Shown in pieces: positions 21,842 to 64,000 of a stretch of DNA of 64,000 nt (positions are counted from its first letter, which is position 1; every line of letters begins with the position of its first letter). A program made the translations under genes and the position numbers. The DNA is taken from contig CAZMYR010000002.1 of assembly GCA_964570585.1 (NCBI GenBank), positions 7,313 to 71,312 of the forward strand, written 5' to 3'. The notes beneath the pieces were generated by a model. It made no database searches and was not told the DNA's origin. It saw nothing but the letters and a program-made list of their open reading frames with translations. This stretch comes from an uncultured Planctomycetia bacterium. GTDB lineage: Bacteria > Omnitrophota > Gorgyraeia > JABMRG01 > JAFGKX01.

Positions 21842-22575
21842 TGAAGAGCATAATCGTTGAAGGCGTTTGCAAAGAATTTAGGGTAGGTTTCAGGAAAAAT
21901 CAGCCTACTTTAGCCAGATTCATTTCACTCTTTTCCGGAAGGGAGCCTAAAAGAACCCTTAGGGCACTGGATGAGGTTTTCTTTGAACTTGAAGCAGGTC
22001 GAATTTTGGGCGTTATAGGTGAAAACGGCTCTGGGAAAAGCACATTGTTGAGGATTATTGCCGGGATATACACTAAAGATAAAGGCAGAATAGCCGTTAA
22101 CGGCAATGTAATTGCTTTAATAAATTTATATATTGGGCTAAAGGAAAGATTAGTCATGGAAGATAATATCTATCTGATTGGTTCTTTTCTCGGGTTGAGC
22201 CGGAAGGCACTTAAAGAAAGGTTTGACTCAATTGTTGAATTTTCAGAGCTCAAAGATTTTATTAATACAAAAATATATCAGTTTTCTAATGGGATGAGAC
22301 AGCGGCTTGCCTTCTCAATTGCAGTACATTGTAATCCCGATATTCTTCTGCTTGATGAGGTTTTTGAAGTAGGGGATGAACATTTCAGGCTTAAAAGCGC
22401 AGATAGACTCAAGGAATTGACGAAAAATGGAACCAGCGCTATCTTAGTTAGCCATGAAATGTGGATGGTGGAGAAGTACTGTGATAGAGTGATTTGGCTT
22501 GATAAAGGCAGGGTCATTAAAGAAGGCAAGACAGAAGATGTTATCAGGGAATATAAAAGAGCAGGTTCAAAATGA
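21841..22575 (+). CDS. wzt: ABC transporter ATP-binding protein (Wzt/TagH-like, no C-terminal CBM)
   Basis: Walker A GENGSGKST. Signature FSNGMRQRLAFS. Walker B ILLLDE. Confidence 0.85.
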   Translation: MKSIIVEGVCKEFRVGFRKNQPTLARFISLFSGREPKRTLRALDEVFFELEAGRILGVIGENGSGKSTLLRIIAGIYTKDKGRIAVNGNVIALINLYIGLKERLVMEDNIYLIGSFLGLSRKALKERFDSIVEFSELKDFINTKIYQFSNGMRQRLAFSIAVHCNPDILLLDEVFEVGDEHFRLKSADRLKELTKNGTSAILVSHEMWMVEKYCDRVIWLDKGRVIKEGKTEDVIREYKRAGSK

Positions 22576-23979
22576 AAGAGTCGAGCGAAAACGAATCCGA
22601 AGTACCATCCGCTGTAAATGAACTACTAATCTATAAAATATAGATAAAGACGCCAACCATTTCAGGGGAATATTTAACGGAATGAATTTACAATTTATTA
22701 AAAAACCAAGAATATCATGACACAATTGTATTTCCTCTTTTGTAAAATTAGGATAGCTGATAACTGCCTTTACTCTTTCAGTATAAAATTTTTCATCTGG
22801 CAACCAATTATTCTCCTCACAAATTCTCGCTAACGGGGTACCTGGATAGGGGGTAAAAATTTCCGAAGAATGGCCTGCTTTTAAAGGCAATTTTCGACAT
22901 AATTTCACTGTATCTAAAAACAGCTCTTTATTCTCAAAAGGAAGCCCTACCATTACCTGGGCATAACAGGATATGCCATGATTGGCGCATAAGTTGAAAC
23001 TATCTATTATTTGTTTATCGGTTATCTTTCTTTTTAAAATAGTCTTTCTAAATCTTTCATTGCCGTGTTCTACCCCCATTATTACCCATACAGTTCCTGC
23101 TGCTTCTTTTAATAAACTCACCATATCTGAATCTATCGTTCCAGGCCGCAAATTGCATTTAAGTGGATATCTAATCTTCTTTTTGTACAGTGTAAAAAAT
23201 TCATAGAACCATTTTCTGTTGAGAGATATTGTATCGTCATCCAATCTGATATACCCAGATTTGTGTTTCTTTATAGCCGCTATATTCAATTCAATCTCTT
23301 CAATGGCCTTTTGGGGAGAGCGTTGCCTAAAATAAGAACCTTGGTTTAGATATAAATCGTTTAATGCTTTACTTGAACAATACGAACATTCAAATGTACA
23401 ACCTCTGCTAAATATAAAACCATTTATACAATCAACAGCATCAACTGCTTTCTGGTTATCCAGGCACGTTTTGTCAGGGAATGGTAGCTCATCAAGATTT
23501 TTAATAAGGGGCCTAAGAGTATTTCTAACAATTTTATTTTTTTCTTTAAACCAGAAATTCTTGATTTTAGAGTAGCCCCTTTTATTCTTAAACGCCTCTG
23601 CAAGTTCCAACATGGCAAACTCGCCTTCCCCCCGAACTATGGCGTCTAATGCGGAGATTTCAGAAATACACTCCGGTTTAAAAGTAGGATGCTTTCCTCC
23701 GCAGACTACGAAACTGTGGGAAATTTCTTTTATCGCTTTTATAATTTCCTTTAGATAATTGAACTGATTGGTTGTTATAGCAAATCCAATTATATCCGGT
23801 TGTTGTATTTTTACCTTTTCATATAATGAGAGAATATCTTTTCTGTTCTTAAGCGGGATGTAGTCAACCGAATAATGGGCTTGTTTTAAAACAGCGTATA
23901 TATAACCTAAGCCGTAGCTATATATCCGTCCTCTCCACTCGGGAAGATTTATTGCAGGATATATCAAAAATATTTTCAT
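22567..23979 (-). CDS. Cobalamin-binding (class B) radical SAM enzyme
   Basis: N-terminal B12-binding-like domain (IIGFAITT..VVCGGKHPT). CTFECSYC (CxxxCxxC). Confidence 0.8.
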   Translation of the reverse strand: MKIFLIYPAINLPEWRGRIYSYGLGYIYAVLKQAHYSVDYIPLKNRKDILSLYEKVKIQQPDIIGFAITTNQFNYLKEIIKAIKEISHSFVVCGGKHPTFKPECISEISALDAIVRGEGEFAMLELAEAFKNKRGYSKIKNFWFKEKNKIVRNTLRPLIKNLDELPFPDKTCLDNQKAVDAVDCINGFIFSRGCTFECSYCSSKALNDLYLNQGSYFRQRSPQKAIEEIELNIAAIKKHKSGYIRLDDDTISLNRKWFYEFFTLYKKKIRYPLKCNLRPGTIDSDMVSLLKEAAGTVWVIMGVEHGNERFRKTILKRKITDKQIIDSFNLCANHGISCYAQVMVGLPFENKELFLDTVKLCRKLPLKAGHSSEIFTPYPGTPLARICEENNWLPDEKFYTERVKAVISYPNFTKEEIQLCHDILGFLINCKFIPLNIPLKWLASLSIFYRLVVHLQRMVLRIRFRSTLSF

Positions 23980-25078
23980 TTTTTAAATTTTTTACAAAAG
24001 CTTCAAACCCTTTAGATGCTTTCATTATTTTTAAGTCTACTAACTGATTGCTATTTTTGAACTGCACTGAACCCGGATAATATGGGTTAATATCTGGATT
24101 TTCAATAATTTGTTCTGCTTGCCCCTTATTCTGCAGGAGCCAGTCTTTTGTCCATCTATTATTCCCATGCTCTCCTATCTTTTTTGCTTGTGCCAGAGCC
24201 CTTGAAAGGAAGTCGGATAGATATCTAAAATGAAATACAGCTCCTTCAATTTCTGATAAATCTGTCCCGAGGACATGGTGCTGCCCTTGACCTAAGAATA
24301 TGCCTGGCTTGAATTTTAAAAGGGGGACCTTATCTAAATTAACTCTAACACTGAAAATACGTTCGCGCATACCCCCAGTCATAATACTGCCCTCCTGCGG
24401 GGATAAATGCCTTAATCTGTAATGAGAATCTTTATCAAAATAAGGGCATCTCAACAGAGGATTCTCTCCCTGTTTATATTCAGCCAACCTTATCGGTTCA
24501 TTCGAATACATATCCAAAAGCATAGAGTATAATGCAGTAGAGCCTTCTTTATCTAAAAAATTACACAAACCCCTGATAGAAACCTTTTCGTAATGGGGAT
24601 AGATGAAAATTTCATCAGCATCTACGACTAAGCACCAATGGCCCCTCCCGTATTTACCCAATAGAACCCTTATCCATTCAACGCCGCAATTATACTTTCC
24701 ATAACTTTCATTTATTTTAAAAACATGAGTGTTTTTTCTGGATAATAAAAAAGATACAGTTCCGTCAGTCGAGCCATTATCAATAACAAAGAATCTGTTG
24801 ACACCCATCCTGGAATAATATTTGAAAATATAGGGCAGACGTAAAGATTCATTCCGGACAACCATAAACAGCCTTATTTCATCAGGGGCATGAGGTACTC
24901 GGACAGAATCAAGCTTACGGAGCTTTATAATTATTCTTATAGTTCTTAGGAGACGATGAAATCCATTCTTAAAAACCCAAGCCTTCCATACAAAATCCTT
25001 CCCAAAAACTAAGAGCCTCCAAAAGAGGTTCTTAGAATATCTTTTTCCTTCTATTTTTTGCCTTAAGTTTTTAAACAT
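23918..25078 (-). CDS. GT-A fold glycosyltransferase (GT2-like; FVIDNGSTDGT, VVDADE)
   Basis: 386 aa. N-terminal 225 aa are near-identical to the 25716..26798 paralog. Conserved leader MFKNLRQKIEGKRYSKNLFW. Confidence 0.6.
   Translation of the reverse strand: MFKNLRQKIEGKRYSKNLFWRLLVFGKDFVWKAWVFKNGFHRLLRTIRIIIKLRKLDSVRVPHAPDEIRLFMVVRNESLRLPYIFKYYSRMGVNRFFVIDNGSTDGTVSFLLSRKNTHVFKINESYGKYNCGVEWIRVLLGKYGRGHWCLVVDADEIFIYPHYEKVSIRGLCNFLDKEGSTALYSMLLDMYSNEPIRLAEYKQGENPLLRCPYFDKDSHYRLRHLSPQEGSIMTGGMRERIFSVRVNLDKVPLLKFKPGIFLGQGQHHVLGTDLSEIEGAVFHFRYLSDFLSRALAQAKKIGEHGNNRWTKDWLLQNKGQAEQIIENPDINPYYPGSVQFKNSNQLVDLKIMKASKGFEAFVKNLKNENIFDISCNKSSRVERTDI
24417..25075. repeat. Segmental duplication copy 1 (~660 bp, near-identical to 26147-26795)
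   Basis: Direct reading of identical DNA (e.g. atctttatcaaaataagggcatctcaacagagg) through to the start codons. Confidence 0.8.
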
Positions 25079-25081
25079 TTT

Positions 25082-25732
25082 TCATTTATTTACAATTATT
25101 GCCTTTTTTCTAATACACCACTGCGTGCTGTTATCCAAATAAATGATTTCGTAATTATGTTTTTTTATAAACTCTTTAACTGCCTTATAAACTCCATGAT
25201 GTATATGCTTTGGATAAGGGAAAAAATCATGTCCGGCAATAAAACCTTCTTCCTTTACTTTATCTTTTAAAATTTCTAATTCTTTTTTACATTGTTCATA
25301 ACTATGGCAGGTATCTAAATAAACCCAGTCGAAATAGCGATTTGGAAATCTTTTTAAAGCAAATAAATCATTATCAATGTGAAAGGCGCATACCTTATTT
25401 TTATCATACTTCTTAACAATTCTCTTCGCTTCCTCAAAGGTTTCTCTGGTTTTAAGTTTCCCGAAATTATCGCAAGGGGTGTTCCACGAAAAATATTCCC
25501 CCCTTACTTTCCACCAGCCATCTATCAAATATAATTTTTTCGGTTGAATAACTTTTAGAATATATTTTGAGAACTCCCCTTTAAAAACTCCTATTTCAGC
25601 ACCAATTGAATTCTTTGGTAAAATTTTAAGGAATTTTGCCCTTCCTTTACCGCTTGGTTTTTTAAGCAAAGAATACAAAAATTTCCAGATAAAATTTAAT
25701 TTTTGTCTTAAGTTCTTAAACATTTTTTGCAT
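25082..25732 (-). CDS. Class I SAM-dependent methyltransferase (TylF/FkbM-like, putative sugar O-methyltransferase)
   Basis: GAEIGVFKGEFS glycine-rich SAM motif. Its N-terminus MQKMFKNLRQKL shares the leader of the neighbouring GT genes. Confidence 0.55.
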   Translation of the reverse strand: MQKMFKNLRQKLNFIWKFLYSLLKKPSGKGRAKFLKILPKNSIGAEIGVFKGEFSKYILKVIQPKKLYLIDGWWKVRGEYFSWNTPCDNFGKLKTRETFEEAKRIVKKYDKNKVCAFHIDNDLFALKRFPNRYFDWVYLDTCHSYEQCKKELEILKDKVKEEGFIAGHDFFPYPKHIHHGVYKAVKEFIKKHNYEIIYLDNSTQWCIRKKAIIVNK

Positions 25733-26798
25733 TTTTCACAAACAATTCAAACCCATCAGATGTTTTCATTATTTTTAAATCCACTAATTGATTGCTACTT
25801 TCGAATTTTATTGAATTTTGGTAATATAGATTAATACCGGGGTTTTCGGTTATTCTTTTTGCATATTCTTTATATTCTATGGCCCCCTCCCAATGTTCTT
25901 CTCTTTTTAGTTCTTCTAGAACTCGTGGGATGAAGTCAGATGCATATTTAAAATGAAATACAACTCCTTCGATTTTTGATAAGTCTACCCCAGGAGTATA
26001 GTGCTGACCTACCGTCAAAGAAATTCGAGGGGTAAATTTTAAAAGAGGAACTTTACTTAAAGAAGACGTAGTAACACCAAAGACGCGTTTGCGCATACCA
26101 CCCACGCAGCCATATCTCGGTATTGGACCCCCAGCCCGGTAATGGGTATCTTTATCAAAATAAGGGCATCTCAACAGAGGATTCTCTCCCTGTTTATATT
26201 CAGCCAACCTTATCGGTTCATTCGAATACATATCCAAAAGCATAGAGTATAATGCAGTAGAGCCTTCTTTATCTAAAAAATTACACAAACCCCTGATAGA
26301 AACCTTTTCGTAATGGGGATAGATGAAAATTTCATCAGCATCTACGACTAAGCACCAATGGCCCCTCCCGTATTTACCCAATAGAACCCTTATCCATTCA
26401 ACGCCGCAATTATACTTTCCATAACTTTCATTTATTTTAAAAACATGAGTGTTTTTTCTGGATAATAAAAAAGATACAGTTCCGTCAGTCGAGCCATTAT
26501 CAATAACAAAGAATCTGTTGACACCCATCCTGGAATAATATTTGAAAATATAGGGCAGACGTAAAGATTCATTCCGGACAACCATAAACAGCCTTATTTC
26601 ATCAGGGGCATGAGGTACTCGGACAGAATCAAGCTTACGGAGCTTTATAATTATTCTTATAGTTCTTAGGAGACGATGAAATCCATTCTTAAAAACCCAA
26701 GCCTTCCATACAAAATCCTTCCCAAAAACTAAGAGCCTCCAAAAGAGGTTCTTAGAATATCTTTTTCCTTCTATTTTTTGCCTTAAGTTTTTTGGCAT
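25716..26798 (-). CDS. GT-A fold glycosyltransferase, paralog of 23918..25078 with divergent C-terminal ~130 aa
   Basis: MPKNLRQKIEGKRYSKNLFW... Identical through ...CPYFDKD, then diverges. Confidence 0.6.
   Translation of the reverse strand: MPKNLRQKIEGKRYSKNLFWRLLVFGKDFVWKAWVFKNGFHRLLRTIRIIIKLRKLDSVRVPHAPDEIRLFMVVRNESLRLPYIFKYYSRMGVNRFFVIDNGSTDGTVSFLLSRKNTHVFKINESYGKYNCGVEWIRVLLGKYGRGHWCLVVDADEIFIYPHYEKVSIRGLCNFLDKEGSTALYSMLLDMYSNEPIRLAEYKQGENPLLRCPYFDKDTHYRAGGPIPRYGCVGGMRKRVFGVTTSSLSKVPLLKFTPRISLTVGQHYTPGVDLSKIEGVVFHFKYASDFIPRVLEELKREEHWEGAIEYKEYAKRITENPGINLYYQNSIKFESSNQLVDLKIMKTSDGFELFVKNAKNV
26147..26795. repeat. Segmental duplication copy 2 (partner of 24417-25075)
   Basis: See copy 1. 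Confidence 0.8.
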
Positions 26799-26830
26799 TT
26801 TATTTAGGTATTCCCATCAAAAATAAGCTT

Positions 26831-27742
26831 TTATGCCACTTCTTTACAATTATTCTTTGCTATATTAAATCTTCTGATAGCTTCTGATATAGAATTATAC
26901 TGCCTCCACCAACCCATTTTTCTATTTATTTCACTTTGCCGTGTTTGATATAATTCATATCGTTTGAGAACATAGTTCAAGTCAATGTACTTATAGTGCA
27001 ATAATTTTAATTCCCCAGAACTGTCAACAACTATTTTTCCTACTGGATTGGCACGATGGCATCCGTACTGGTAGTTTATTTTATAAATTGCATTTGGATT
27101 AAATATACAAGGTTTACAATAGTTCTTGTTGAATATACCTAACTTTATTTCGTCATAGACCATACCAGGGAATGTTGGCAATGTTTCTGAGAACATATCA
27201 AAACCTAAAGGGATGGGAACAGTAATCCCTTTTTTTTTACACACCCTTAAATATTCAATTAAATTTTTATGCCATAAAATTTCATCTATATCGACAACAG
27301 CAACCCAATCAGCTAAACCTCTACTTTTTTCCCATTCATTATTTTTAATTCGAAGACAAATATCTTCTCTAATTTTACCGGCAGTATCAAATTGTATTAA
27401 TTTCGTCTTTGGGAAATTTTTAATTATAGCTACAGAATTATCATCGGACATGTTGTCATATATAAAAATTTTGTCTGCTATATTAGAATAGTGCCTTAAG
27501 AAATATGGTAATAGTATCTCTTCGTTCCAGCAAACTGCATAAACATGAATTATTAACTGTGCAGAAAAACATCTTCGAGCTCGCCAGAAACTTCCTCTAA
27601 GTGAAAAATCGGCACGTTGCATCAGAGATTGTCCTATGCGATGGATAATCCAAAGCAAATCTTTCCAGAAAACTAAACTCTGCCAAAAAAAATTCTTTGA
27701 ATTCCTTTTTTCTTCTATTTTATTTCTTAGTTTTTTAAACAT
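26831..27742 (-). CDS. GT-A fold glycosyltransferase, distant paralog of the two above (same leader, DxD = DID)
   Basis: MFKKLRNKIEEKRNSKNFFW. HVYAVCWNEEILLPYFLRHY parallels RLFMVVRNESLRLPYIFKYY. Confidence 0.5.
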   Translation of the reverse strand: MFKKLRNKIEEKRNSKNFFWQSLVFWKDLLWIIHRIGQSLMQRADFSLRGSFWRARRCFSAQLIIHVYAVCWNEEILLPYFLRHYSNIADKIFIYDNMSDDNSVAIIKNFPKTKLIQFDTAGKIREDICLRIKNNEWEKSRGLADWVAVVDIDEILWHKNLIEYLRVCKKKGITVPIPLGFDMFSETLPTFPGMVYDEIKLGIFNKNYCKPCIFNPNAIYKINYQYGCHRANPVGKIVVDSSGELKLLHYKYIDLNYVLKRYELYQTRQSEINRKMGWWRQYNSISEAIRRFNIAKNNCKEVA

Positions 27743-28763
27743 TTTTCCATTTAATCAATTTAAATATTTCAGAATCTGCAATTTTCCTTTTTGGTTGGAT
27801 TTGCTTTCGTAGTGTCAGGGTTTTTTTAAAGTTTGCAATATTCCAAATTAAGGCTCTTGTTGGTATAAAAACATATTTAAATCTTGTGCAGAACCCAAGG
27901 TTTTTAACTAAAGGGACTAATCTAAAATTTTCTATTTTTCTGTTAAGTAAATATCCTATAGAGAAGTAAGTATAATTTATGAATAATAATGGAATAATTT
28001 TTATTAGTGTTTTTAACTCATAGTTTTTAATTACTGTGCAAAGTCCATTTCTTTTACAAAGATAAGTCTTTTGTAAAGCATATTTTTTCCAAGAAGCACC
28101 AAATTTATGATATACAATTGCTTTTTCTGCAAATATTATTTTATAGCCAAAAAGATTCGCTCTCCAGCCCCAATCTAAATCCTCATTGTAAGCAAAATAC
28201 CTGTCATCAAAAAGTCCAATCTCATTTAAGGATTCTGTTTTTAAAAGCATTGCTGCTCCACAAGCAAAGATTACTTTTTTAGGAAATCTCTTAATATCTT
28301 CTCTCCTTTTAAACATATTAATACCATAGCCGTCTCCTATTATTGTAGAAGTTGCGCCCTGGCTATTTATTATTTCTGGATTGTCATAAAATAGTATATT
28401 TGAAGCAACTGCAGCTATGTTTGATTCAGATTCAATTGCTTTAATTAAATATTTTAACCAATTTTTGTCAACTTTTGTATCATTATTAAGAAGAGCAATG
28501 TATTTTGGATTATAATTTTCTATACAGTATTTAACTCCGTTATTAATCGCATGAGCAAACCCATAATTTCTGTCAAGGCATAGTATGTCAATATCAAGTC
28601 CTGGCAAATCTTTTACATATTGAACACTTTTGTCTTTAGAGGCATTATCAATAAAAACCGTCTTAATCTCTTTGTAAGATTGTTTAGCCAAAGAGGTTAA
28701 ACAATCTTTTAAATGCTGTTGCCCATTAAAATTAGGGACTAAAATTGTTGTCTTGTATTTCAT
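27735..28763 (-). CDS. GT2-family glycosyltransferase
   Basis: TILVPNFNG...FIDNASKD...LNNDT. Confidence 0.75.
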   Translation of the reverse strand: MKYKTTILVPNFNGQQHLKDCLTSLAKQSYKEIKTVFIDNASKDKSVQYVKDLPGLDIDILCLDRNYGFAHAINNGVKYCIENYNPKYIALLNNDTKVDKNWLKYLIKAIESESNIAAVASNILFYDNPEIINSQGATSTIIGDGYGINMFKRREDIKRFPKKVIFACGAAMLLKTESLNEIGLFDDRYFAYNEDLDWGWRANLFGYKIIFAEKAIVYHKFGASWKKYALQKTYLCKRNGLCTVIKNYELKTLIKIIPLLFINYTYFSIGYLLNRKIENFRLVPLVKNLGFCTRFKYVFIPTRALIWNIANFKKTLTLRKQIQPKRKIADSEIFKLIKWKNV

Positions 28764-30897: not shown

Positions 30898-30906
30898 TTT
30901 TTGTTC

Positions 30907-54987: not shown

Positions 54988-57111
54988 TTAGATGGTATGT
55001 AGTTCGTGTGCTGAAATACCTATCCTTCCTGAAAAGTTCAGGTTATCTTTCATCATTCGCGCATTTAACATCCTTGCCTTCATTCTCTTAGGGCAATTCT
55101 GGACCTGGCCTAATACATTTAATTTGTTACCTGAAAAATCGAAAATAATATCTGGAAGGTTTCCTAAATCATCGCTCCTTAATTCTAAACACCCATTTTG
55201 ATGGTTGCCTAAAGTTATATCTCGCCAGATGCCTTCTGCCTCAGGGAAGTCTCCTTGCTCATCACCGCTAACCCAAGTCTTATATCTCTCAGAGGCCATT
55301 AAGCCCACTTTCCACTCCCCGATATCCAATTCTTTATTTAAATGGTTAGTTACCTTCCAGTGAAGCCGGCCTGAACCATCTATGGCCATCTTCCAGAGCT
55401 GGGTTATGGGCAGATTATCCCACTTGATCCAGGCAATAAACCGATGCCGGCCCATCTTTATCTTCCAGTGGCCCTGGGATGAATCGTGCCAATTTTTTCC
55501 GAGCTTAAAGGAGCTATTTAGACCCACATCTTCGGTTACCTCCTTATCCTGATAGTAGAGCTTTAGCCATCCATTATTCCAGCTAAGTTTTAGGGAATTT
55601 CTGATAATACTCCTGTCCCTGCCTCTATCTTCCCTCGCCTTATTGAGCTTATTAATAACCCTCCTTAGCTTCCAACCTTCGAATTTCCCATCTTCCATAG
55701 GATAATGATTAATTATCAAATGAGGTATTTTTAACTTATACAAAGTTAGAAGCACTTTTCGGAGTCGTTTCATCCTTACCTTAAAATTATTACCTGTATT
55801 ATCGTAGAAGTAATTCCAATTATCACTGGGTAAATAAATTCCGTACTTTTCAGGATGAAGCCCGATGTCTGCTGTAGGGTTAATAAATAAGGTTGAGACA
55901 TTGGTTACCTCATGGATATATTCCTTATTTCTCTCAATGAAATTAAGGGTCTCCTTAAAGCAAAAATTGTCTTCGCCAGGATGACCAACGATAATATTAA
56001 TAGTTGTCCGGATTCCGCTTTGGTAGGTTGCTCTGACTAGTCTCTCGGCATCCTGGCCGGTATAAGGCTTGTTCATCTTCTTGAGTACTTTATCCGATGC
56101 GTTATCCATACCGTAACATAAATTTCTGCATCCTGCTTCTTCCATTTTCTTAAGTAGTTTAAACTCCATATCTTTTCTTATAACAGCATAACTGCCCCAG
56201 TTAAATTTTAATTTTGATTCAATAACTAAGTCACAAAATGCCTCCAGTTGTCTGAGATTGCCATTACATTCTAAATCGTTGAATGAAAAGTTATTGCAGT
56301 CGTTATTCTCGATATGAAACCTGACTTCTTCTAATATGTCCTCCGGCTTCTTCCATCTATACGGTGCGCACATAGCGCAGTCAACACAAAAACTACATCG
56401 GCGAGGGCATCCCCTGCTCGATAAAAGGGGTAAGATTCTTGTATTTTGCTTAAGATATAAAGAGTACAAACTTAAATCAAATTCTTCAAATGTGGGAAAA
56501 GGGATAGTATCTAATTTCTTCACTGGGTCAGGTCTTTGCTCACCAATATATTTCCCATCTCTATGCATTAAAGTACCGGGGATGTCTCCGATAATACCTT
56601 TTTTATAAAATGAAATCAGGATATTTAATAAGGGTTTTTCTCCTTCTCCAATTACAAAAATATCCACCAAGCCCTTTTTAACTTTATAGAAATCCCAATA
56701 ACAACCTGGCCCGCCAAAAATTATTATCCTTTTCTTATCCCTTTGCTTGATAATCTCTGTAATCTTCTCTGCTACAAATAAACTCATATAATTAACTGAA
56801 AAACCGATAAATTTTGTTTCTATAGATAAAACTTGATTAACAAAAGAATCTACCTCTTTATCAAAAGCCCCTACTAAATCTTTGGCCACCTGTCGAGGGA
56901 GAAGTTGGAATAGGGTCTCGATCTTCCAAAATCTTTTATTCTTTCGAGAGGCCTTATTGTATAGGTAAGCATTAAGATCGATTATCTTTGAATTGAACCT
57001 ATGGCTATTTAGATAGGAAACCAGATAAGCGATACCTATAGGAGGCATCTTTGTCTCCCAGGGTGGCACCATAACCAAAACAATATCGGGTTTCTTAACT
57101 TGACTATTCAT
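54988..57111 (-). CDS. Cobalamin-binding radical SAM enzyme with ~230-aa Trp-rich C-terminal extension
   Basis: CPRRCSFC. The C-terminal region WKIKMGRHRFIAWIKWDN...GEWKVGLMASERYKTWVSGDEQGDFPEAEGIWRDITLGNHQNGC is duplicated at 57157-57568. Confidence 0.75.
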   Translation of the reverse strand: MNSQVKKPDIVLVMVPPWETKMPPIGIAYLVSYLNSHRFNSKIIDLNAYLYNKASRKNKRFWKIETLFQLLPRQVAKDLVGAFDKEVDSFVNQVLSIETKFIGFSVNYMSLFVAEKITEIIKQRDKKRIIIFGGPGCYWDFYKVKKGLVDIFVIGEGEKPLLNILISFYKKGIIGDIPGTLMHRDGKYIGEQRPDPVKKLDTIPFPTFEEFDLSLYSLYLKQNTRILPLLSSRGCPRRCSFCVDCAMCAPYRWKKPEDILEEVRFHIENNDCNNFSFNDLECNGNLRQLEAFCDLVIESKLKFNWGSYAVIRKDMEFKLLKKMEEAGCRNLCYGMDNASDKVLKKMNKPYTGQDAERLVRATYQSGIRTTINIIVGHPGEDNFCFKETLNFIERNKEYIHEVTNVSTLFINPTADIGLHPEKYGIYLPSDNWNYFYDNTGNNFKVRMKRLRKVLLTLYKLKIPHLIINHYPMEDGKFEGWKLRRVINKLNKAREDRGRDRSIIRNSLKLSWNNGWLKLYYQDKEVTEDVGLNSSFKLGKNWHDSSQGHWKIKMGRHRFIAWIKWDNLPITQLWKMAIDGSGRLHWKVTNHLNKELDIGEWKVGLMASERYKTWVSGDEQGDFPEAEGIWRDITLGNHQNGCLELRSDDLGNLPDIIFDFSGNKLNVLGQVQNCPKRMKARMLNARMMKDNLNFSGRIGISAHELHTI

Positions 57112-57156: not shown

Positions 57157-57540
57157 CTACTTTTTAAGCACTATCTTTCCTGAAAAGTTCAGGTTATCTT
57201 TCATCATTCGCGCATTTAACATCCTTGCCTTCATTCTCTTAGGGCAATTCTGGACCTGGCCTAATACATTTAATTTGTTACCTGAAAAATCGAAAATAAT
57301 ATCTGGAAGGTTTCCTAAATCATCGCTCCTTAATTCTAAACACCCATTTTGATGGTTGCCTAAAGTTATATCTCGCCAGATGCCTTCTGCCTCAGGGAAG
57401 TCTCCTTGCTCATCACCGCTAACCCAAGTCTTATATCTCTCAGAGGCCATTAAGCCCACTTTCCACTCCCCGATATCCAATTCTTTATTTAAATGGTTAG
57501 TTACCTTCCAGTGAAGCCGGCCTGAACCATCTATGGCCAT
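57157..57540 (-). pseudogene. Gene fragment: exact duplicate of the C-terminal 120 codons of 54988..57111 (DNA identity 55018-55408 vs 57171-57568)
   Basis: The identity extends ~28 nt upstream of the ORF's first Met. This suggests a duplication remnant rather than an independent gene. It could be expressed as a standalone domain. Confidence 0.5.
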
Positions 57541-57554
57541 CTTCCAGAGCTGGG

Positions 57555-59042
57555 TTATGGGCAGATTACTCCACCATCTTCATTAATGTGCTTATCTTTC
57601 TTTTCCTCTAAGACTTTATTTGTAAACTCAATACATTCTGCTTCCTCGGTATAGGGAATATGCGATTGGCTAGCTAGATTTTTCAACTCTTTAATCTTCC
57701 TCTCTCTAACCTCTCTTGTATTATTTTCACGAGGTATATGCCAGTTAAATTCGCCACTATCTTGAGGAAAAGTAATGCCGTATTTTTTCGGGTTATGAAA
57801 TATTTCTGAGCCAGTCATTATGTACAAAGGGTTTATAGACTTTATTAAGGTAATAAATTTAGTGTTTCTTTTTAAAAACTCTTTAGTCTCATTGAAATCT
57901 TGCTCTGTTTCCCCCGGATACCCTACTATAAAGTAAAGGCATGTTTTTATACCCACTTTATGAGTGTCTCTTAATACCTTCTCTGCTATTTTTCTGGTAA
58001 ACATTTTTCTCATTGCTTTTAAAATTTTATTAGACCCACTCTCTATACCATATTCCAGCCGAAAAAAACCTGCCCTTTTCATCTTTCTTAACAAATCTTC
58101 GGTCATTTCTCTGCGTGAAATTGCCAAACCAGTAATATTTACAAAAAGCCTATTTTTGATTAACAAATTACAAGTTTCCTCTAAAACTTTAATATTTCCA
58201 TTTGCCGCCGCATCAGATACACTTATGTACTCGATATTGTATTTTTCTTTATAAAATTTTATTTGATTAAAAATATTTAAAGCTGATTTAGACTTGAAAA
58301 AAGGGAAAATACTCTTAACGCTACAAAAAGGGCAATTCCCTATACAACCACGAGAAAATTCCATTACAACGCAATTAGAAGACTTATATTCATTTAAATT
58401 GAATTCATCAAATGTAGGATAGGGAAAATTATCTAACCGTTCACCAAACTCAGGAGTTAAATCATCAAAAAAAGTTTCTTTAACCAATACACCTTTTATA
58501 TCAATAGCTTTTGTATTTTCTTTATTTAAAATAGATAATAATAGTTTATATAAAGCTGTCTCTCCCTCGCCTAGTACACAATAATCAACGTAATCCTTTA
58601 TTTTGTTAAGTAAAACTTCTCTTTGTTCTTTTACAGTAACATTTACTCCTCCAAGAACTATTATTTTAAAAGGAGATACGCGCTTAACCCTTTTTACTAT
58701 CTCTTCTAAAATTAGATTGGAACTATCAGTAAGTGAAGACAGACCTAATACTGGCGAGGAAGAGTTAACTATTTCGTCTATAAGTGAATTTAGATGGGTC
58801 TTTATTTTTTCATCGAATTTTAAAAGTTCTTCTTTTTGTCGCCACCAGTGAGCATAATTCATAGACCATAAATATCTGCATTTTTGGGGAACCCCGTTAT
58901 ATAACTTAGTATTAAAATCAAAAATTTCTGTACTTATGCCTTTATCTCTTAAATAACTACTAAGACAAGCCGTCCCCAAAGGAGGAACATCCACTCCCCA
59001 TGGAGGCAGGTTTACTAATAAAATATCTGGTTTATCTGACAT
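57555..59042 (-). CDS. Cobalamin-binding (class B) radical SAM enzyme
   Basis: CIGNCPFC. B12-binding-like N-terminus. Confidence 0.8.
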   Translation of the reverse strand: MSDKPDILLVNLPPWGVDVPPLGTACLSSYLRDKGISTEIFDFNTKLYNGVPQKCRYLWSMNYAHWWRQKEELLKFDEKIKTHLNSLIDEIVNSSSPVLGLSSLTDSSNLILEEIVKRVKRVSPFKIIVLGGVNVTVKEQREVLLNKIKDYVDYCVLGEGETALYKLLLSILNKENTKAIDIKGVLVKETFFDDLTPEFGERLDNFPYPTFDEFNLNEYKSSNCVVMEFSRGCIGNCPFCSVKSIFPFFKSKSALNIFNQIKFYKEKYNIEYISVSDAAANGNIKVLEETCNLLIKNRLFVNITGLAISRREMTEDLLRKMKRAGFFRLEYGIESGSNKILKAMRKMFTRKIAEKVLRDTHKVGIKTCLYFIVGYPGETEQDFNETKEFLKRNTKFITLIKSINPLYIMTGSEIFHNPKKYGITFPQDSGEFNWHIPRENNTREVRERKIKELKNLASQSHIPYTEEAECIEFTNKVLEEKKDKHINEDGGVICP

Positions 59043-59187: not shown

Positions 59188-62100
59188 CTAAGCTTGCTTT
59201 GGAGATAGCTTTAAAATTCTTTTATGCATCTTCTCATTATGCATCAGGTTATCGCAGGTTTTGATGCAGCCGATTTCCTTAAAATAAGGGTGGGTTTTAG
59301 ATAAAGTCTTGGCCCGGCATCTAAACTCATCATATTTTTTGCTGAACCAGATATCTTTAAAATTTTGCTTGTTTATATTTCCCATTGGCTCCTTTACTGC
59401 CCGACAGCAAGGAACGACGGTTCCATCAGCCATAATCCGGCAAAAAAACCAACCAACATAGCAGGGGATAAAATCTACTCTGTGGACATCATAATTACCC
59501 TTATAGCTCGAATCTCCAGAAACCCTTTCTAAGAACCCATCAAAATAATCCAAATTCAATCCATTGGCGGAGGCTCTATTCTGGCTTTCAATCTGTTTAG
59601 CCAATTTAAGAACTTCTTTAGATTGGGCCTGATTTAGGATTAAGCTATCCGTAGCCCCTTCAATAACATCAACCACGGTATAATAGAGATTCTCTGCTTT
59701 TACATCTTGAGCAAGCTTATACATCGCTGGAATATCCTGACAATTGAGATTGGTAATCACATTGGATAGGGTCAAAGAGGGCTTAGAATTCTTCCTTGTT
59801 TGAGCTAAATAAACCAAATTTTCCACAATCTCCTCAAAAAGACCCTGATTTACCCCGGGATGGGTCGCTTGATAGGTTTCATCATGAGCGGCCCACAGGC
59901 TCACTGCCAACTCATCTAATTCTAAATCCACTAATTGCTTTATCTTTTCTTTGTCCATTAAAGAAAAATTGGTGGTAACAGCAGCTTTTATTCCCTTTTT
60001 CTTGGTATATTCTAAGAGCTCCATAATATCAGAATGCATAAAGGGCTCTCCACCTCCAGTATAGCGAATCTTCTCTGCCCCTAAATCAGCTAATTCATCG
60101 ATCAATCTTTTAACTACTTCTGTATCTAATTGCATCCGTAACCATTCATGGTTAAAATCCTTGTTTTCTTCTTTTAAAAGGGATGAATACATCCAGCAGC
60201 CAATACAGCGCTGATTACATCGGTTGGTCAAATCAACAACAATATGCTCTGGTCCCTTAAATGCCCTTCTTCCATCGGTAATACCGGAAATAACCAAATC
60301 CTCTTTTGAGGCCTTTTTTAAAGAGACGCTCTTATGCTTATCTTCAGATTTAAACTTCCTTAAAGTCCTGGTTAATTTAGCCGTCACCGTAAATCCAGCC
60401 CTCTCAAGGGGTCCCAGAGACATCATTTTCTTATGCATATGCATATTTCTACCAATATCATCGCAGCTTTTATAGCAGCCGGCTTCCTGAGTATCCGGGT
60501 CGTTACCGATTAACCTGAAAAACGAGCCGTCCTTTTTATAAACCTTAGCCTTGCTCCGGAAATATCTTTGTTTTGAATTATTCCAGATACTCTTAAAATT
60601 GTCTCTATATAGATTGCCTACCGGAATCCGATGGGACTTAAGACAAGAATTTATATCCCCATTAGGCATAACCCGGGCAAACAACCAGCCAATATAGCAG
60701 GGCATCTTATCGATAATATTTCTATCGTAGGTGGCTTTTTGTAAATCTTGGCAGGAAGAAGTCCGGCGTAAGAAGGAATCAAATCTGAATAATAATACAT
60801 TATCAATGTAACCGCGGGCATCCATTCGCTGGGCAACCCTCTGACAGATTCTTTGAAGCTTCAGAGCCTGTTCAGTATCCAAGATTAATTTATCTGTTTT
60901 GCCCGGCATAGTATCAATAAGGGTAAACTCGACTGACTCCGAGCCCGTATATCTGGCCAGCTCAATCATCTCCTCTACCTCTTGATAATTCATCGTAAAC
61001 AAGACATTGTAGAGCTTTATATAAGGAGTTTCTCTTTTGTTCCTATTAAGATACCTTAAATTCTCCACAATCTGCCTAAAGGCCTCTTCATTTTTATTAG
61101 GATGGGTAATATCGTAGGTGTGAGCCGTCCCGGCCCAGGTACTGACGGTTAGATGCTCTACCCCCATCTTTATCAACTCATCTATTCTTTTTTTATCTAA
61201 AAGGGTAAAGTTTGTATTCACATAACAGACCAGGTCCCTGCTCTTAGTAAACTTGAGTATCTCCATAATATCAGGATGCATGAAGGGCTCTCCTCCGCCA
61301 GAGAAATAAATCTCTTTGCCTCCCAACTTGACAATTTCATCAATTACTTCCTTAACTATCTCTAAGGGTAATTCCTCCCTTTTTTCTTCTTGCGATAACC
61401 TCTTTTCTTCTAAAAGGGGAGAATTACACCAGCAGCCAATACAATTATTATTACAGTTATTGGTAAGGTCAATCTGGACATGAAAGGGGCCCTTATAGGC
61501 ATACTCTCCATCATAGATTCCTAAAATTTCTAAGAAATTCTTCTTTAACCAGGAAGGTTTTGCAAGCCTGAGAATCTTTCTTCCGGCAATCAATCCTCCA
61601 AACAGGGGTACCTTATCCCTGAAGAAACCTAAAAATCTCCTGTTTTGATAAATCCTCTCCCTATCAGGAATAAGCATCTTATTATCAAACTCAACCAATA
61701 TAAACCCTTCTAAATGGGGAATCACACCGTTAGTATAAATCCTCAAAATATGCTCACCCTGGCCAGCAAACAATATTGCTTCCTTAAAAGTCCTTAAATT
61801 TTTCCTTTTCCAGCCACCAGTAACCCCGGACATTCCATCCTCTTTAAGCAACCTATCATCCAGATATATATTCACCGGACGTTTCTCTCCTGAAGCATAT
61901 CTACTCCATAAAACATACCTTTTTGATTCCGGTAAATAAACCTTATATTCGGCAAAGCAAAACCCCTCGCCGCCATCAATTACCATGCCCTTACCAAATA
62001 TATGCTCTTGAATATTTAGATTTCCTGATTTAAATTTACTGGCAGGAATAATAAGCTTTATCTGCGCCTCAGGGAGACTGTAGTCTCCCTTTGCCTTTCT

Positions 62101-63567
62101 TTTCATAGTAAGTTGATGATTTAAACCCTTTTGTTTTTTATCTGAAAAAAATGACTCCTTAATCTGTAAATTCATACCTACATTATCGCAAGACTTATAG
62201 CAATTAATCTCTTTAAAATAAGGGTCGCTTTTAGGTAGGGACTTTGTCTTATATCTAAACTCTCGATAAGCAGGAGAGTCCCAGATTTCTAAAAAATTAT
62301 TCTTGTAAATATTGCCCAAAGGCTTAAGCACTGCTTTACAGCAAGGGATAACTTCACCGGTAGATAAAACCCGTGAGTATGTCCAACCCATATAACAGGG
62401 GAGATTATCAATTATGTCCTTTTCATAGACCTGCTCATATATATTAGCTGAATTTAATCGGCGCATAAAAGAACCAAAACCCAATATTGTTAAAAAGTTA
62501 AAGGTAATCTTGCTATTTTCACCAACAGGACAAAAGTTTTTAAGCTGAGGGCATTTTTTGCAATCCTCTTTAGAGAATTTAAAGGTCATTTTATTATCGA
62601 CCTCATTAATCAAAGGATTCACTTTAGTGGGTAGAGTAGAAAATCCCTCAGGACATCTCAACGAATGCATGGCCTCTTTTCCAACGCCATCTTTGTCTTT
62701 TAACCACTCCTTAAGAAAGAAATTTGGATAAATCCTTATAAATCGGCCGGGGAATTCCCTCAATTCCTTATCTTTTGCAACCTTTTGAGTTTTAAAATCG
62801 AGCAATCCTAATTCCTTAAAATATAAATCCCTGTGCTTGGTCAAGGCATCAAATTGCTCTTTGATATCTTTTACTTGCTGATCAGATAGAGCCAAAAATG
62901 AAGTTTCATCTTTAATGATATCCATTACCTGGAATTCAATAGACTCAACTTGTGTATCTAAAGCAAAATCAATCATCTGCTGGATTTCCCTATAATTTAG
63001 ATTACAAATTACGTTATAAATCTTTATATGGGGAAGATATTTATTTCCTTTAGTCTTTAACCTGGAGAGTCTCTTAAGACTATTTTTTATTTTATAAAAA
63101 TCTACTTCTGTCTTGCCGGGGTGAGTCTCTATATATGTTTCTGGGGTGGCAGCCCAGATACTTGCCGTAATCATATCCACGCCTAAATCGATGAGCCTTT
63201 TTGCTCTTTCCTCATCAATCAAGGTAAAATTGGTAATTATGTTAAGTTTTAGCTCTTTCATTTTTATTAATTCTATAATTTCTATAATATCGGGATGTAA
63301 AAATGGCTCGCCTGCGCCAGAAAGAAAAATTTCCTCTGTCCCTGAACGAGACAAGTCTTCGATTAATGTCTTGACTTTTGCGAATGGTAAACTAAGATTT
63401 TTATCACGCGGTGGATTCTTTATAAAAGAAGAGTGCACCCAGCAACCGATACAGTTGTTATTGCATTTACCGGTTAGGTCAATCTGAACAATCCCTGGAC
63501 CAGTAAAGGCACGCCTACCATCCATTATCCCTTTTAGGGCCGATTGATTAACCTTGGTCTCCAGCAT
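59188..63567 (-). CDS. Three-module radical SAM/SPASM megaprotein (1459 aa) with carbohydrate-binding-module-like inter-module domain
   Basis: Three CxxxCxxC clusters (CNNNCIGC twice, CNQRCIGC). Each is followed by a GGEPF(L/M)HxDI motif and a SPASM-like PCY(M/I/V)GW...G....PCC...GN(I/L)....F..IW tail. Between modules 1 and 2 lies a ~100-aa Y.S...RPVNIYLDD...GGW...GEHILRI...P.L.GF segment with a CBM6/35-like pattern. Confidence 0.8.
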   Translation of the reverse strand: MLETKVNQSALKGIMDGRRAFTGPGIVQIDLTGKCNNNCIGCWVHSSFIKNPPRDKNLSLPFAKVKTLIEDLSRSGTEEIFLSGAGEPFLHPDIIEIIELIKMKELKLNIITNFTLIDEERAKRLIDLGVDMITASIWAATPETYIETHPGKTEVDFYKIKNSLKRLSRLKTKGNKYLPHIKIYNVICNLNYREIQQMIDFALDTQVESIEFQVMDIIKDETSFLALSDQQVKDIKEQFDALTKHRDLYFKELGLLDFKTQKVAKDKELREFPGRFIRIYPNFFLKEWLKDKDGVGKEAMHSLRCPEGFSTLPTKVNPLINEVDNKMTFKFSKEDCKKCPQLKNFCPVGENSKITFNFLTILGFGSFMRRLNSANIYEQVYEKDIIDNLPCYMGWTYSRVLSTGEVIPCCKAVLKPLGNIYKNNFLEIWDSPAYREFRYKTKSLPKSDPYFKEINCYKSCDNVGMNLQIKESFFSDKKQKGLNHQLTMKRKAKGDYSLPEAQIKLIIPASKFKSGNLNIQEHIFGKGMVIDGGEGFCFAEYKVYLPESKRYVLWSRYASGEKRPVNIYLDDRLLKEDGMSGVTGGWKRKNLRTFKEAILFAGQGEHILRIYTNGVIPHLEGFILVEFDNKMLIPDRERIYQNRRFLGFFRDKVPLFGGLIAGRKILRLAKPSWLKKNFLEILGIYDGEYAYKGPFHVQIDLTNNCNNNCIGCWCNSPLLEEKRLSQEEKREELPLEIVKEVIDEIVKLGGKEIYFSGGGEPFMHPDIMEILKFTKSRDLVCYVNTNFTLLDKKRIDELIKMGVEHLTVSTWAGTAHTYDITHPNKNEEAFRQIVENLRYLNRNKRETPYIKLYNVLFTMNYQEVEEMIELARYTGSESVEFTLIDTMPGKTDKLILDTEQALKLQRICQRVAQRMDARGYIDNVLLFRFDSFLRRTSSCQDLQKATYDRNIIDKMPCYIGWLFARVMPNGDINSCLKSHRIPVGNLYRDNFKSIWNNSKQRYFRSKAKVYKKDGSFFRLIGNDPDTQEAGCYKSCDDIGRNMHMHKKMMSLGPLERAGFTVTAKLTRTLRKFKSEDKHKSVSLKKASKEDLVISGITDGRRAFKGPEHIVVDLTNRCNQRCIGCWMYSSLLKEENKDFNHEWLRMQLDTEVVKRLIDELADLGAEKIRYTGGGEPFMHSDIMELLEYTKKKGIKAAVTTNFSLMDKEKIKQLVDLELDELAVSLWAAHDETYQATHPGVNQGLFEEIVENLVYLAQTRKNSKPSLTLSNVITNLNCQDIPAMYKLAQDVKAENLYYTVVDVIEGATDSLILNQAQSKEVLKLAKQIESQNRASANGLNLDYFDGFLERVSGDSSYKGNYDVHRVDFIPCYVGWFFCRIMADGTVVPCCRAVKEPMGNINKQNFKDIWFSKKYDEFRCRAKTLSKTHPYFKEIGCIKTCDNLMHNEKMHKRILKLSPKQA
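61942..62077. repeat. Exact duplication (>=135 bp) shared with 63866-64000, running off the window end
   Basis: Identical strings cttatattcggcaaagcaaaacccctcgccgccatcaattaccatgcccttaccaaatatatg... on both. Confidence 0.8.
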
Positions 63568-63595
63568 TTAAATACCTTTTTCTTTTTGATTTTCG

Positions 63596-64000
63596 CTAAC
63601 TATCTTTGACTCCTTTAAGAAAAGCAAAACTGTGAATGTGAGGGATAAAACCTTTAGTATGTATCTTTAAGGTATGCTCCCCTTCACAGGCGTCGAGGGT
63701 TGTTTCTTTAAGCCAGCGTAAATCTTCCGTTGTCCAGCCAGAGGTTGTAGAATTCAATGCCTTTCTTTTAATTAAATTGGCATCAAAATAAAGTTCAACC
63801 GGACGCAGCTTATTAGTTGCATAATAAGACCAGAGCTCGTATCTGCCACCTTCCTTAAAATGCTTCTTATATTCGGCAAAGCAAAACCCCTCGCCGCCAT
63901 CAATTACCATGCCCTTACCAAATATATGCTCTTGAATATTTAGATTTCCTGATTTAAATTTACTGGCAGGAATAATAAGCTTTATCTGCGCCTCAGGGAG
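63596..64000 (-). CDS. Partial paralog of the megaprotein (N-terminus outside window). C-terminal CBM-like domain
   Basis: The track reports 63596..63910 from the first in-window Met, but the frame is open and DNA-identical to the megaprotein coding sequence up to position 64000. Confidence 0.6.
   Translation of the reverse strand, partial: LPEAQIKLIIPASKFKSGNLNIQEHIFGKGMVIDGGEGFCFAEYKKHFKEGGRYELWSYYATNKLRPVELYFDANLIKRKALNSTTSGWTTEDLRWLKETTLDACEGEHTLKIHTKGFIPHIHSFAFLKGVKDS

Follow-up and report, generated by a model that had tools for sequence, protein, structure and literature searches.

The closest described counterparts of the locus reported here are the pathways for O-antigens and other glycans that depend on an ATP-binding cassette (ABC) transporter, represented by those of Escherichia coli O9a and Klebsiella and by the Wzm-Wzt transporter of Aquifex. 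In the characterized Wzt proteins of E. coli O9a and Aquifex, a C-terminal extension reads the finished glycan. Here, we analyzed a stretch of 64,000 nucleotides (nt), hereafter the window (contig CAZMYR010000002.1 of assembly GCA_964570585.1), which is recorded as DNA of an uncultured Planctomycetia bacterium and placed by GTDB in the Omnitrophota, nanobacteria believed to be attached to other cells or to prey on them. As in the described pathways, Wzm and Wzt genes lie beside glycosyltransferase (GT) genes in the window, and related loci in other genomes include, as these pathways do, genes for a primer of the WecA type, for a ligase (Wzy_C) and for a Wzt whose C-terminal extension takes the place of the glycan-binding domain, an extension that is a canonical Wzt_C in the archaeal locus L021 (L-numbers denote related loci or contigs, and P-numbers homologous proteins). 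Unlike the locus reported here, the described pathways are not known to contain a multi-module cassette of radical S-adenosylmethionine (SAM) enzymes; in addition, the Wzt extension of Omnitrophota differs in fold, being galactose-mutarotase-like, present in 2 to 5 copies and shared with the putative tailoring enzymes, and the Wzt of the window carries no extension. An ABC transporter glycan locus with an unprecedented, conserved radical tailoring cassette is what is new here, and we put at roughly 0.65 the probability that this cassette performs radical chemistry on a lipid-linked, ABC-exported glycan.

Radical SAM enzymes of the same two classes, the B12 type and the twitch/SPASM type, act on natural-product sugars, where GenK and GenD1 catalyze C-methylation, AprD4 dehydration, BtrN dehydrogenation, BlsE decarboxylation, NeoN and AviX12 epimerization, and OxsB ring contraction. 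By sequence, the solved structures closest to the island proteins include those of AprD4, OxsB, TokK, BlsE and BtrN, although the similarity is remote (E of 1e-7 to 1e-19) and reaches no curated cut-off. Whereas the natural-product enzymes are single enzymes working on small soluble substrates, the island combines 8 to 12 fused or clustered modules with carbohydrate-binding-type domains, a membrane anchor and a polymer export locus. The HpnI-HpnK-HpnJ pathway for the hopanoid side chain (GT, deacetylase and B12-like radical SAM enzyme) offers another parallel, in that a B12-domain radical SAM enzyme acts on a membrane glycoconjugate made by a neighboring GT. HpnJ is among the best curated matches of one group of the island proteins (154 to 185 bits, far under the 578-bit cut-off), but squalene-hopene cyclase and the other hpn genes are absent here, and the island has many more radical SAM modules. 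The Arn pathway (ArnB, ArnC and ArnT) and Gtr-type decoration of glycans in the periplasm resemble the window in that a DegT aminotransferase, an ArnC-like GT2 with transmembrane (TM) segments and GT-C enzymes are clustered; here, however, B12-type radical SAM genes are interleaved with them, equivalents of ArnA, ArnD and ArnE/F were not identified, and all scores lie below the equivalog cut-offs.

To our knowledge, the only radical SAM enzymes described to act on carbohydrates are single ones, which belong to antibiotic, hopanoid and archaeal lipid pathways. A reading of this DNA made earlier from the letters alone (the sequence-only reading) had taken the locus to be undescribed, and our full-text literature searches likewise turned up no description of radical SAM-rich polysaccharide loci or of a radical SAM cassette in Omnitrophota. 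A 2026 review of B12-dependent radical SAM enzymes mentions neither glycans nor polysaccharides. In groundwater Elusimicrobia of the Planctomycetes-Verrucomicrobia-Chlamydiae (PVC) group, up to 13 radical SAM genes, some with B12 domains, surround NifHDK-like genes and were proposed to serve cofactor synthesis (bioRxiv 10.1101/765248). That cluster has no GT or Wzm/Wzt context, and the island has no nif paralogues; it is the closest published radical SAM-dense cluster in a PVC lineage, and it is unrelated in content.

Radical SAM proteins of the island and their accessory domains

Pfam and NCBIfam scans of the open reading frames (ORFs) of at least 100 amino acids (aa), together with a motif scan, identified nine radical SAM proteins with 12 modules at 22567-63567, all on the minus strand and all with an intact CxxxCxxC motif. 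The sequence-only reading had counted at least 12 modules on one strand; its eight cobalamin-type units in seven proteins proved exact, and its "four or more" SPASM-type units came to four, one in a single-module protein and three in another. The minus-strand run of genes from 63567 to 22567 is unbroken, with intergenic gaps mostly of -62 to +48 bp and five wider ones (73, 143, 145, 171 and 720 bp), and the island continues beyond the end of the window at 64000. GC content is uniform (0.30 to 0.40) over the island and its left flank, as a comparison with the flank proposed in the earlier reading showed. Radical SAM genes account for 9 of the 28 genes of the island, against about 0.8 expected by chance, a figure that rests on our assumption that some 3% of the genes of an anaerobe encode radical SAM proteins. 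What decides that this accumulation is more than chance is the synteny of its core, which is kept in independent genomes.

The SPASM-type modules reside in two proteins, with PF13186 matched in three stretches of the product of 59188-63567 and in one of that of 54104-54985. The former gene (minus strand) encodes a triple radical SAM and SPASM/twitch protein of 1,459 aa, whose modules m1 (aa 1-480), m2 (aa 680-1060) and m3 (aa 1085-1459) have their radical SAM Cys motifs at aa 35, 705 and 1117. Invariant cysteines are found in m1 (C391/409/410/456/460 plus C305/336/339/346), m2 (C957/975/1031/1035) and m3 (C1369/1387/1388/1434/1438), and their number suffices for one auxiliary cluster each in m2 and m3, as in twitch domains, and for two in m1. 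The three modules are about 40% identical to each other, and modules of the same number share 68 to 76% (m1), 65 to 66% (m2) and 55% (m3) identity across genomes. Judging from these values, the protein is to be read as an old triplication with three maintained specialities and not as a recent repeat. Among solved structures, m3 comes closest in sequence to the sugar-acting enzyme BlsE, a cytosylglucuronate decarboxylase, and next to MoaA and BtrN (E values of about 1e-7 to 1e-5). The second SPASM protein (54104-54985, minus strand) has a single module and 293 aa, and its gene lies directly upstream of that for a double B12-type protein. It is 58% identical to aa 1-288 of the product of L010:18803-22750 and 54% identical to that of L020:9135-10004, and in L001/L010 the small SPASM and double B12-type proteins are one, with the SPASM part at the N terminus.

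Seven proteins with eight modules combine a B12-binding domain with a radical SAM domain, and all seven score above the Pfam gathering thresholds for both PF02310 and PF04055. All-against-all BLAST split them into two groups. Group A consists of the products of 22567-23979 (the last gene of the run), 41555-43000, 43002-44381 and 48317-49747, all on the minus strand; they are 26 to 33% identical to each other, and their best curated matches are BchE, HpnJ and ApyD. The 48317-49747 protein is BchE/HpnJ-like yet belongs to neither family, and its nearest solved structure is AprD4, followed by QCMT, OxsB and TokK; it is the group A member for which structures were compared. Three of its homologues (P0457, P0487 and P0488, 45 to 47% identity) carry a fused class I SAM methyltransferase domain. 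Group B (31 to 38% mutual identity) comprises both halves of the 50943-54071 protein together with the products of 54988-57111 (707 aa) and 57555-59042 (495 aa), again all on the minus strand. TIGR03975, PhpK and the methyl-coenzyme M reductase (MCR) glutamine C-methyltransferase are its best curated matches, and the methyltransferase QCMT (9CCB) is the nearest solved structure. Since AprD4, to which group A is closest among solved structures, is in our understanding an enzyme that has a B12 domain but works without cobalamin, cobalamin binding cannot be assumed. By domain and motif, the B12 proteins of the island fall within the definition of class B, with cobalamin use predicted at most.

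The double B12-type protein encoded at 50943-54071 has 1,042 aa and two group B modules, with Cys motifs at aa 231 and 709. The match of its first N-terminal domain to PF02310 is faint, and this module is 37 to 38% identical to the 54988 and 57555 proteins, which carry PF02310. It ends in a TM-like hydrophobic tail at aa ~1005-1030 (…LILFFLFMISLLFCFYLWFL…LGGRE) with a conserved …LGGR motif that is common to homologues of 1,030 to 1,330 aa, and the protein looks like a tail-anchored radical SAM enzyme. No N-terminal signal or TM segment was found in any radical SAM protein of the island, this tail being their sole hydrophobic segment, a pattern that fits oxygen-sensitive cytoplasmic enzymes that would work at the inner face of the membrane. 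A similar tail is preserved among pseudogene remnants at 32140-32710 (minus strand), inside the 720-bp gap at 32043-32764. These remnants comprise the C-terminal TM tail of a multi-module B12-type protein (32468-32710, ending in …LGGRKN) and a piece of a gene of the sulfatase family. In L001/L010, the gene immediately upstream of that for the double B12-type protein encodes a sulfatase, which suggests that part of the radical SAM core was once present here in a second copy that has since decayed.

Pfam confirmed the radical SAM assignment throughout, and not one of these proteins reached the NCBIfam cut-off of a named radical SAM family (BchE, HpnJ, HpnR, PhpK, TIGR03975, QCMT, AprD4, anSME, PqqE, MoaA or AhbD), the outcome on which the sequence-only reading had staked its assignment to no known single-function family. 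The 1,042-aa protein came close to TIGR03975 (279 bits against a cut-off of 281.85), but only by adding its two modules. The sole cut-off reached among the radical SAM proteins was that of the generic twitch-domain model NF033640, which gave 171 bits against 170 for the triple SPASM protein, in four stretches.

Two accessory domains accompany these modules, and both were placed by fold alone, since Pfam returned nothing for either of them at E≤5. One is an insert at aa 490-631 of the triple SPASM protein (nt 61675-62100) that resembles the carbohydrate-binding modules CBM35 and CBM6. Its structural model, built from 26 sequences (pLDDT of 87), matched CBM35/CBM6 structures in Foldseek with E of 2e-7 to 1e-4 and TM-scores of 0.63 to 0.80, at 14 to 25% identity. 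A partial ORF that runs off the window (63596-64000, minus strand) ends in 134 aa of the same type: the domain scores 225 bits with the hidden Markov model (HMM) of the insert and is 75% identical to the insert of P0115 and 62% identical to that of the window. There is probably a further radical SAM protein upstream of this domain. The last 150 nt of the window are also 95% identical in DNA to 61927-62076.

The other, which we call C-dom, has a galactose-mutarotase-like fold and occupies the C terminus of the 707-aa group B protein (aa 500-700, nt 55012-55614). An exhaustive profile search among 1.84 billion representatives found it in only 628 proteins. Among the best 146 of these 628, 79 have a Wzt-like ABC ATPase at the N terminus and, after it, typically 2 to 5 C-doms, and 19 have radical SAM domains and no ABC domain. 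In the related loci, C-doms occur in Wzt (2 to 4 copies), at the C terminus of a ~465-aa protein and at the N terminus of a B12-type protein, the gene for which precedes the triple SPASM gene. Where relatives encode this B12-type protein and then Wzt/Wzm, the window has the partial ORF with the CBM35-like end. The simplest reading, by analogy with characterized Wzt proteins, is that C-dom recognizes the polymer and is common to the exporter and the tailoring enzymes. A truncated C-dom is encoded by a 127-aa ORF at 57157-57540 (minus strand; HMM positions 72-204 of 211), right after the gene for the 495-aa B12-type protein. This ORF was created by a 398-nt direct repeat in which 57171-57568 equals 55020-55417 with one mismatch, and the repeat could be a recent gene conversion, a pseudogene or an assembly artifact.

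The core cassette in other genomes

A search with the triple SPASM protein yielded 168 clusters, mostly full length (1,400 to 1,480 aa; more than 100 full-length), and every source that names an organism is Omnitrophica or Omnitrophota. Homologues of the double B12-type protein are multi-module proteins of 850 to 1,820 aa, whose sources, where named, are Omnitrophica/Omnitrophota, Woesearchaeota, Nanoarchaeota, Caldiserica, Wolfebacteria and Nitrososphaeria. For group A, an NCBI protein with 100% identity was found, and close relatives with a source name are labeled Omnitrophica. From these homologues, the window most probably derives from a metagenome-assembled genome of the Omnitrophota type. 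Alignment of the triple SPASM protein against species-representative genomes gave 15 loci, to which further contigs were added; the titles of the 15 read Omnitrophota, "uncultured Planctomycetia/Planctomycetales," "uncultured bacterium" and Mariniplasma.

The order of the core genes is fixed. A B12-type protein of ~700 to 790 aa is followed by the triple SPASM protein, the ~465-aa protein and a group B B12-type protein of ~680 to 700 aa, and then by the double B12-type protein or a B12-type protein with SPASM, a GT4 and more GTs, often with PMT_2 and AsnB genes. The right-hand 13 kb of the window corresponds to this recurrent core. The orthologue of the core-following GT4 (17442-18686, minus strand; 56 to 66% identity to the GT4 directly after the radical SAM core in relatives) lies 32 kb from the core here, so the window looks like an expanded version of the locus in which a variable block of GT and group A genes has been inserted between conserved ends. 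The architecture thus recurs in a lineage, a point that the sequence-only reading had raised for checking, with the core in at least 15 loci of Omnitrophota-type metagenome-assembled genomes (MAGs) and, unfused, on archaeal contigs; the island is one expanded version of a conserved cassette of Omnitrophota-type MAGs and some archaea, and not the singular oddity it had first seemed.

This synteny also bears on whether the island is an artifact, produced either by an assembly that is chimeric or by unrelated radical SAM genes that came together by chance. The 398-nt repeat and the pseudogene fragments mark a rearranged region that could mislead an assembler, but the core gene order is reproduced in independent assemblies from NCBI, ENA, JGI and Logan, composition is uniform over the island, and proteins 100% and 92% identical to those of the island exist in the protein collection. 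We give an artifact almost no weight; mis-assembly, which the sequence-only reading had named as a way to overturn it, is excluded for the cassette as a whole, and locally it is possible at the 398-nt repeat.

Glycan export genes accompany the core in the relatives. Directly before it, L007, L012, L013, L015, L017 and L019 encode a long Wzt ATPase (686 to 1,146 aa), with Wzm just upstream except in L019, where the contig is cut, and further Wzm/Wzt pairs occur in L009, L020 and L021. Genes near the core include a WecA/MraY-type PF00953 transferase (L017), a Wzy_C ligase-type gene (L015) and YfhO (L007). From these genes, the set in the relatives is predicted to be an ABC transporter-dependent, polyprenol-linked glycan pathway. 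A flavin adenine dinucleotide (FAD) amine-oxidase-like gene product of 429 to 445 aa is encoded just upstream of Wzm in L007, L013, L015 and L017 (e.g., L015:3503-4807) and has no counterpart in the window.

Two contigs labeled as archaeal carry the cassette in unfused form. L021, from the Nitrososphaeria MAG GCA_038871545.1, encodes a double B12-type protein and three separate SPASM enzymes of 396 to 416 aa that are 36 to 40% identical to m2 and m3 of the window, along with a Wzt_C protein, a Wzt with a canonical Wzt_C, Wzm, GT2, GT4, PMT_2 and sugar epimerases. On L020, a JGI contig with a protein cluster labeled Woesearchaeota, the small SPASM orthologue (54% identity) is accompanied by two m1-type proteins, one m2-type protein and fusions of B12-type and SPASM modules, and the neighboring genes encode GT2, GT4, a member of the sulfatase family and a long Wzt-like ATPase. 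A sulfatase-family gene lies inside the cassette in L001/L010 and in L020. By its gene content, the cassette is a presumptive mobile unit tied to glycan genes in both domains of life, and the archaeal versions imply a probable inter-domain transfer, apparently of a surface-glycan toolkit.

Radical SAM modules and GTs are also joined in single proteins. In P0227 and P0230, an orthologue of the GT4 at 17442-18686 (44 to 48% identity, ~385 aa) is joined to an m2-type SPASM module (48% identity, ~375 aa); in P0060, a group B B12-type protein is fused to a GT4; and in P0084 and P0102, group A-like radical SAM proteins are fused to GT2, SPASM and polysaccharide-deacetylase domains. These fusions are strong evidence that the radical SAM modules and the GTs would act on the same molecule.

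A predicted tailoring pathway and its alternatives

The link to a glycan goes beyond adjacency because of the CBM35-like insert, the C-dom shared with Wzt, the radical SAM-GT fusions, and the synteny with Wzm/Wzt, a WecA-type primer and a WaaL-type ligase. Domain content, folds, fusions, synteny and taxonomic spread are observations, and from them we infer what the substrate is, in which order the steps run and which reactions take place. In this model, cytoplasmic GT2 and GT4 enzymes would build a glycan on a polyprenol carrier. While the glycan is still lipid-linked and cytoplasmic, the core radical SAM proteins (the three SPASM/twitch modules, the 293-aa SPASM protein and four group B B12 modules) would tailor it, finding the polymer through the CBM35-like insert and C-dom and modifying unactivated sugar positions, with one of them held at the membrane by its C-terminal anchor. 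Wzm/Wzt would then export the tailored glycan. An Arn-like branch, consisting of the DegT aminotransferase, the polyprenyl-phosphate sugar synthases, four GT-C enzymes and the esterase, would add substituents in the periplasm, and the four group A proteins, whose genes are interleaved with this branch, may modify its lipid-linked sugar donors or side branches.

By analogy with characterized relatives, the B12 modules would most plausibly methylate unactivated sp3 carbons, and the twitch/SPASM modules would most plausibly oxidize, epimerize, dehydrate or decarboxylate sugars; the "heavily C-methylated and/or radical cross-linked" glycan of the sequence-only reading is a guess about chemistry. 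More tentatively, at somewhat less than even odds, a lipid-linked surface polysaccharide might be rewritten at the polymer level by a radical SAM assembly line of 8 to 12 modules guided by the glycan-reading domain of the exporter, a system that would be widespread in uncultured anaerobes (Omnitrophota, some DPANN and Nitrososphaeria). If so, C-methylation, epimerization, deoxygenation or C-C cross-links would be expected at unactivated sugar carbons, giving sugars out of reach of nucleotide-sugar chemistry. If a polysaccharide exporter is indeed firmly tied to a conserved radical cassette of several enzymes, glycans would be diversified at a further, new level, and new sugar structures would be expected on the cell surface of Omnitrophota. 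The locus also yields two uncharacterized carbohydrate-type domains and concrete enzyme pairs for biochemistry; one such pair is the GT4 with the m2-type SPASM module, which certain genomes encode as a single protein.

Several findings weigh against the model of a tailored, ABC-exported glycan. A product or an activity is known for no member of the cassette, and similarity to characterized radical SAM enzymes is far under curated cut-offs throughout; the best curated families are peptide or protein methyltransferases for group B (TIGR03975 and QCMT) and cofactor or peptide maturases for the SPASM modules. Within the window, Wzt (244 aa) is without any C-terminal domain, a primer transferase (PF00953) and a ligase (PF04932) are absent, and the Wzc/Wza set upstream of the island could belong to a separate system. 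The top match of C-dom is not the known carbohydrate-binding domain of Wzt, Pfam Wzt_C is undetected in it, and its fold family includes non-lectin members such as the periplasmic domain of YidC and a capsid protein. Several MAG records carry inconsistent taxon labels ("uncultured Planctomycetia" and "Mariniplasma"), and we regard the non-Omnitrophota labels as unreliable.

The curated matches raise the question of whether the right-hand 13 kb is a maturation cluster for proteins or for ribosomally synthesized and posttranslationally modified peptides (RiPPs), with SPASM maturases and PoyC/QCMT-like C-methyltransferases merely beside a glycan locus. Group B has its best NCBIfam matches in TIGR03975 (a RiPP C-methyltransferase family), PhpK and the MCR glutamine methyltransferase and its nearest solved structure in QCMT, the SPASM modules match peptide and cofactor maturases, and one database entry is automatically named AlbA. 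All of these family scores are nevertheless under the curated cut-offs, and the core and its borders hold no plausible precursor ORF, since the intergenic ORFs of 20 aa or more in the core region number just one, of 40 aa (in the 171-bp gap 50771-50943). Nor does the core contain a conserved small ORF, and the genes with Pfam annotation in it and next to it included neither a leader peptidase nor a transporter of the RiPP type. Carbohydrate-type domains embedded in the enzymes, the fusions to GT4 and GT2 and the constancy of the Wzm/Wzt and GT neighborhood across phyla make a RiPP cluster very improbable.

A membrane lipid or the polyprenol carrier itself might instead be the target, through methylation, cyclization or cross-linking of the hopanoid, glycerol dialkyl glycerol tetraether (GDGT) or ladderane type, with the GTs adding the head group only. 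Group A matches HpnJ, HpnR and the "lipid biosynthesis B12-rSAM" model TIGR04072 at 60 to 185 bits, the double B12-type protein carries a C-terminal membrane anchor, and the cassette is found in archaea and bacteria alike. Those three cut-offs were not reached, however; neither the window nor the related loci contain genes for isoprenoid, fatty-acid or hopanoid synthesis, the accessory domains have folds of carbohydrate enzymes, and C-dom is shared with the ATPase of a glycan exporter. We consider a lipid target improbable.

The same enzymology could also serve an acceptor that is neither lipid A nor the anchor of a capsule but a protein, for example of the S-layer or a pilin. The four PMT_2-type GT-C enzymes belong to the family of protein O-mannosyltransferases, the Wzy_C gene of L015 could encode a PglL-type oligosaccharyltransferase, and the archaeal versions in L020 and L021 cannot serve lipopolysaccharide. 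On the other hand, PMT_2 also covers ArnT-type lipid A transferases, no candidate acceptor protein was identified, and Wza/Wzc-like export genes adjoin the locus, so that we hold a protein acceptor to be unlikely, if worth keeping in mind.

Other genes of the window

Of the roughly 20 GTs announced by the sequence-only reading, we found 14 within 22567-64000 and 16 in the whole window; three pairs are local tandem duplicates (GT2_4, 80%; GT4, 54%; GT-C, 80% aa identity). On the minus strand, a block at 23918-32043 encodes a GT2 (AglJ/DPM-like, with 4 TM segments), a pair of GT4s, another GT2, three GT2_4/GT92-type GTs and a class I methyltransferase (25082-25732). The latter had been taken for an O-methyltransferase; the assignment reached here is that of a class I methyltransferase. 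Further along the same strand are two GT2 genes (32764-34616), an AsnB-type amidotransferase gene (34760-36616) that recurs downstream of the cassette in relatives, the tandem GT-C pair with 80% identity (36620-40110) and a gene for an alpha/beta-hydrolase that is carbohydrate-esterase-like and has an N-terminal hydrophobic segment (40159-41526).

The Arn-like genes, likewise on the minus strand, comprise a membrane GT-C (PMT_2/ArnT-like, 44378-46306), a small GT2 resembling polyprenyl-phosphate sugar synthases (46348-47055), a DegT/ArnB-type sugar aminotransferase (47052-48314) and an ArnC-like polyprenyl-phosphate sugar synthase of the GT2 family with C-terminal TM segments (49821-50771; 221 bits over its full length against a cut-off of 529). 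The DegT, AsnB-like and esterase genes had all been recognized from the letters. So had three polyprenyl-phosphate sugar synthases, with which the best NCBIfam matches of the GT2s at 30907, 46348 and 49821 agree (AglJ, dolichyl-phosphate hexose transferase, PpgS and ArnC, all under the cut-offs); two of the three have C-terminal TM segments. The idea of partly periplasmic assembly by GT-C enzymes from lipid-linked sugars fits the ArnC-, ArnB- and ArnT-like genes.

No PF00953 or PF02397 primer, Wzx or Wzy was detected among the window ORFs of at least 100 aa, in agreement with the sequence-only reading, which had overlooked the ABC exporter and a Wza/Wzc-like set. The former consists of Wzm (an ABC-2 permease) and the 244-aa Wzt ATPase, encoded on the plus strand at 21083-22575 and converging on the island; a fourth GT-C (PMT_2) gene lies at 18767-20590 on the same strand. 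The latter set, at 7210-17030 on the minus strand, encodes a Wzz/EpsF-like protein, TPR and HD proteins, an XrtA-type ATPase-like protein, two Wzc-like kinases and a Wza-like exporter. It resembles the extracellular polysaccharide loci of the XrtA/PEP-CTERM type (ATPase, 221 bits; exporter, 118 bits), with matches to the PEP-CTERM models for ATPase, export, tyrosine kinase, chain length and amidotransferase that stay below the cut-offs; in 7210-17030, TIGR01007 alone passes its cut-off. Membership in the XrtA/PEP-CTERM type was rejected on these scores, and the window contains no exosortase.

At the left end, an ORF with ADH_N (GroES-like) and class II aldolase domains runs off the window start (1-2344, minus strand) and has a GC content of 0.43, above the rest of the window. 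Rfam gave no match in the first 2.4 kb, and the idea that this part is noncoding was rejected, as the ORF covers it. Immediately left of the export genes, a tyrosine integrase gene (2472-3530) and two tRNA-Ser genes (GGA and CGA anticodons; 6021-6110 and 7114-7205) flank a trypsin-like peptidase gene, a 246-aa ORF and a DUF3108 gene, and this stretch may be an integration hotspot at the border of the glycan region.

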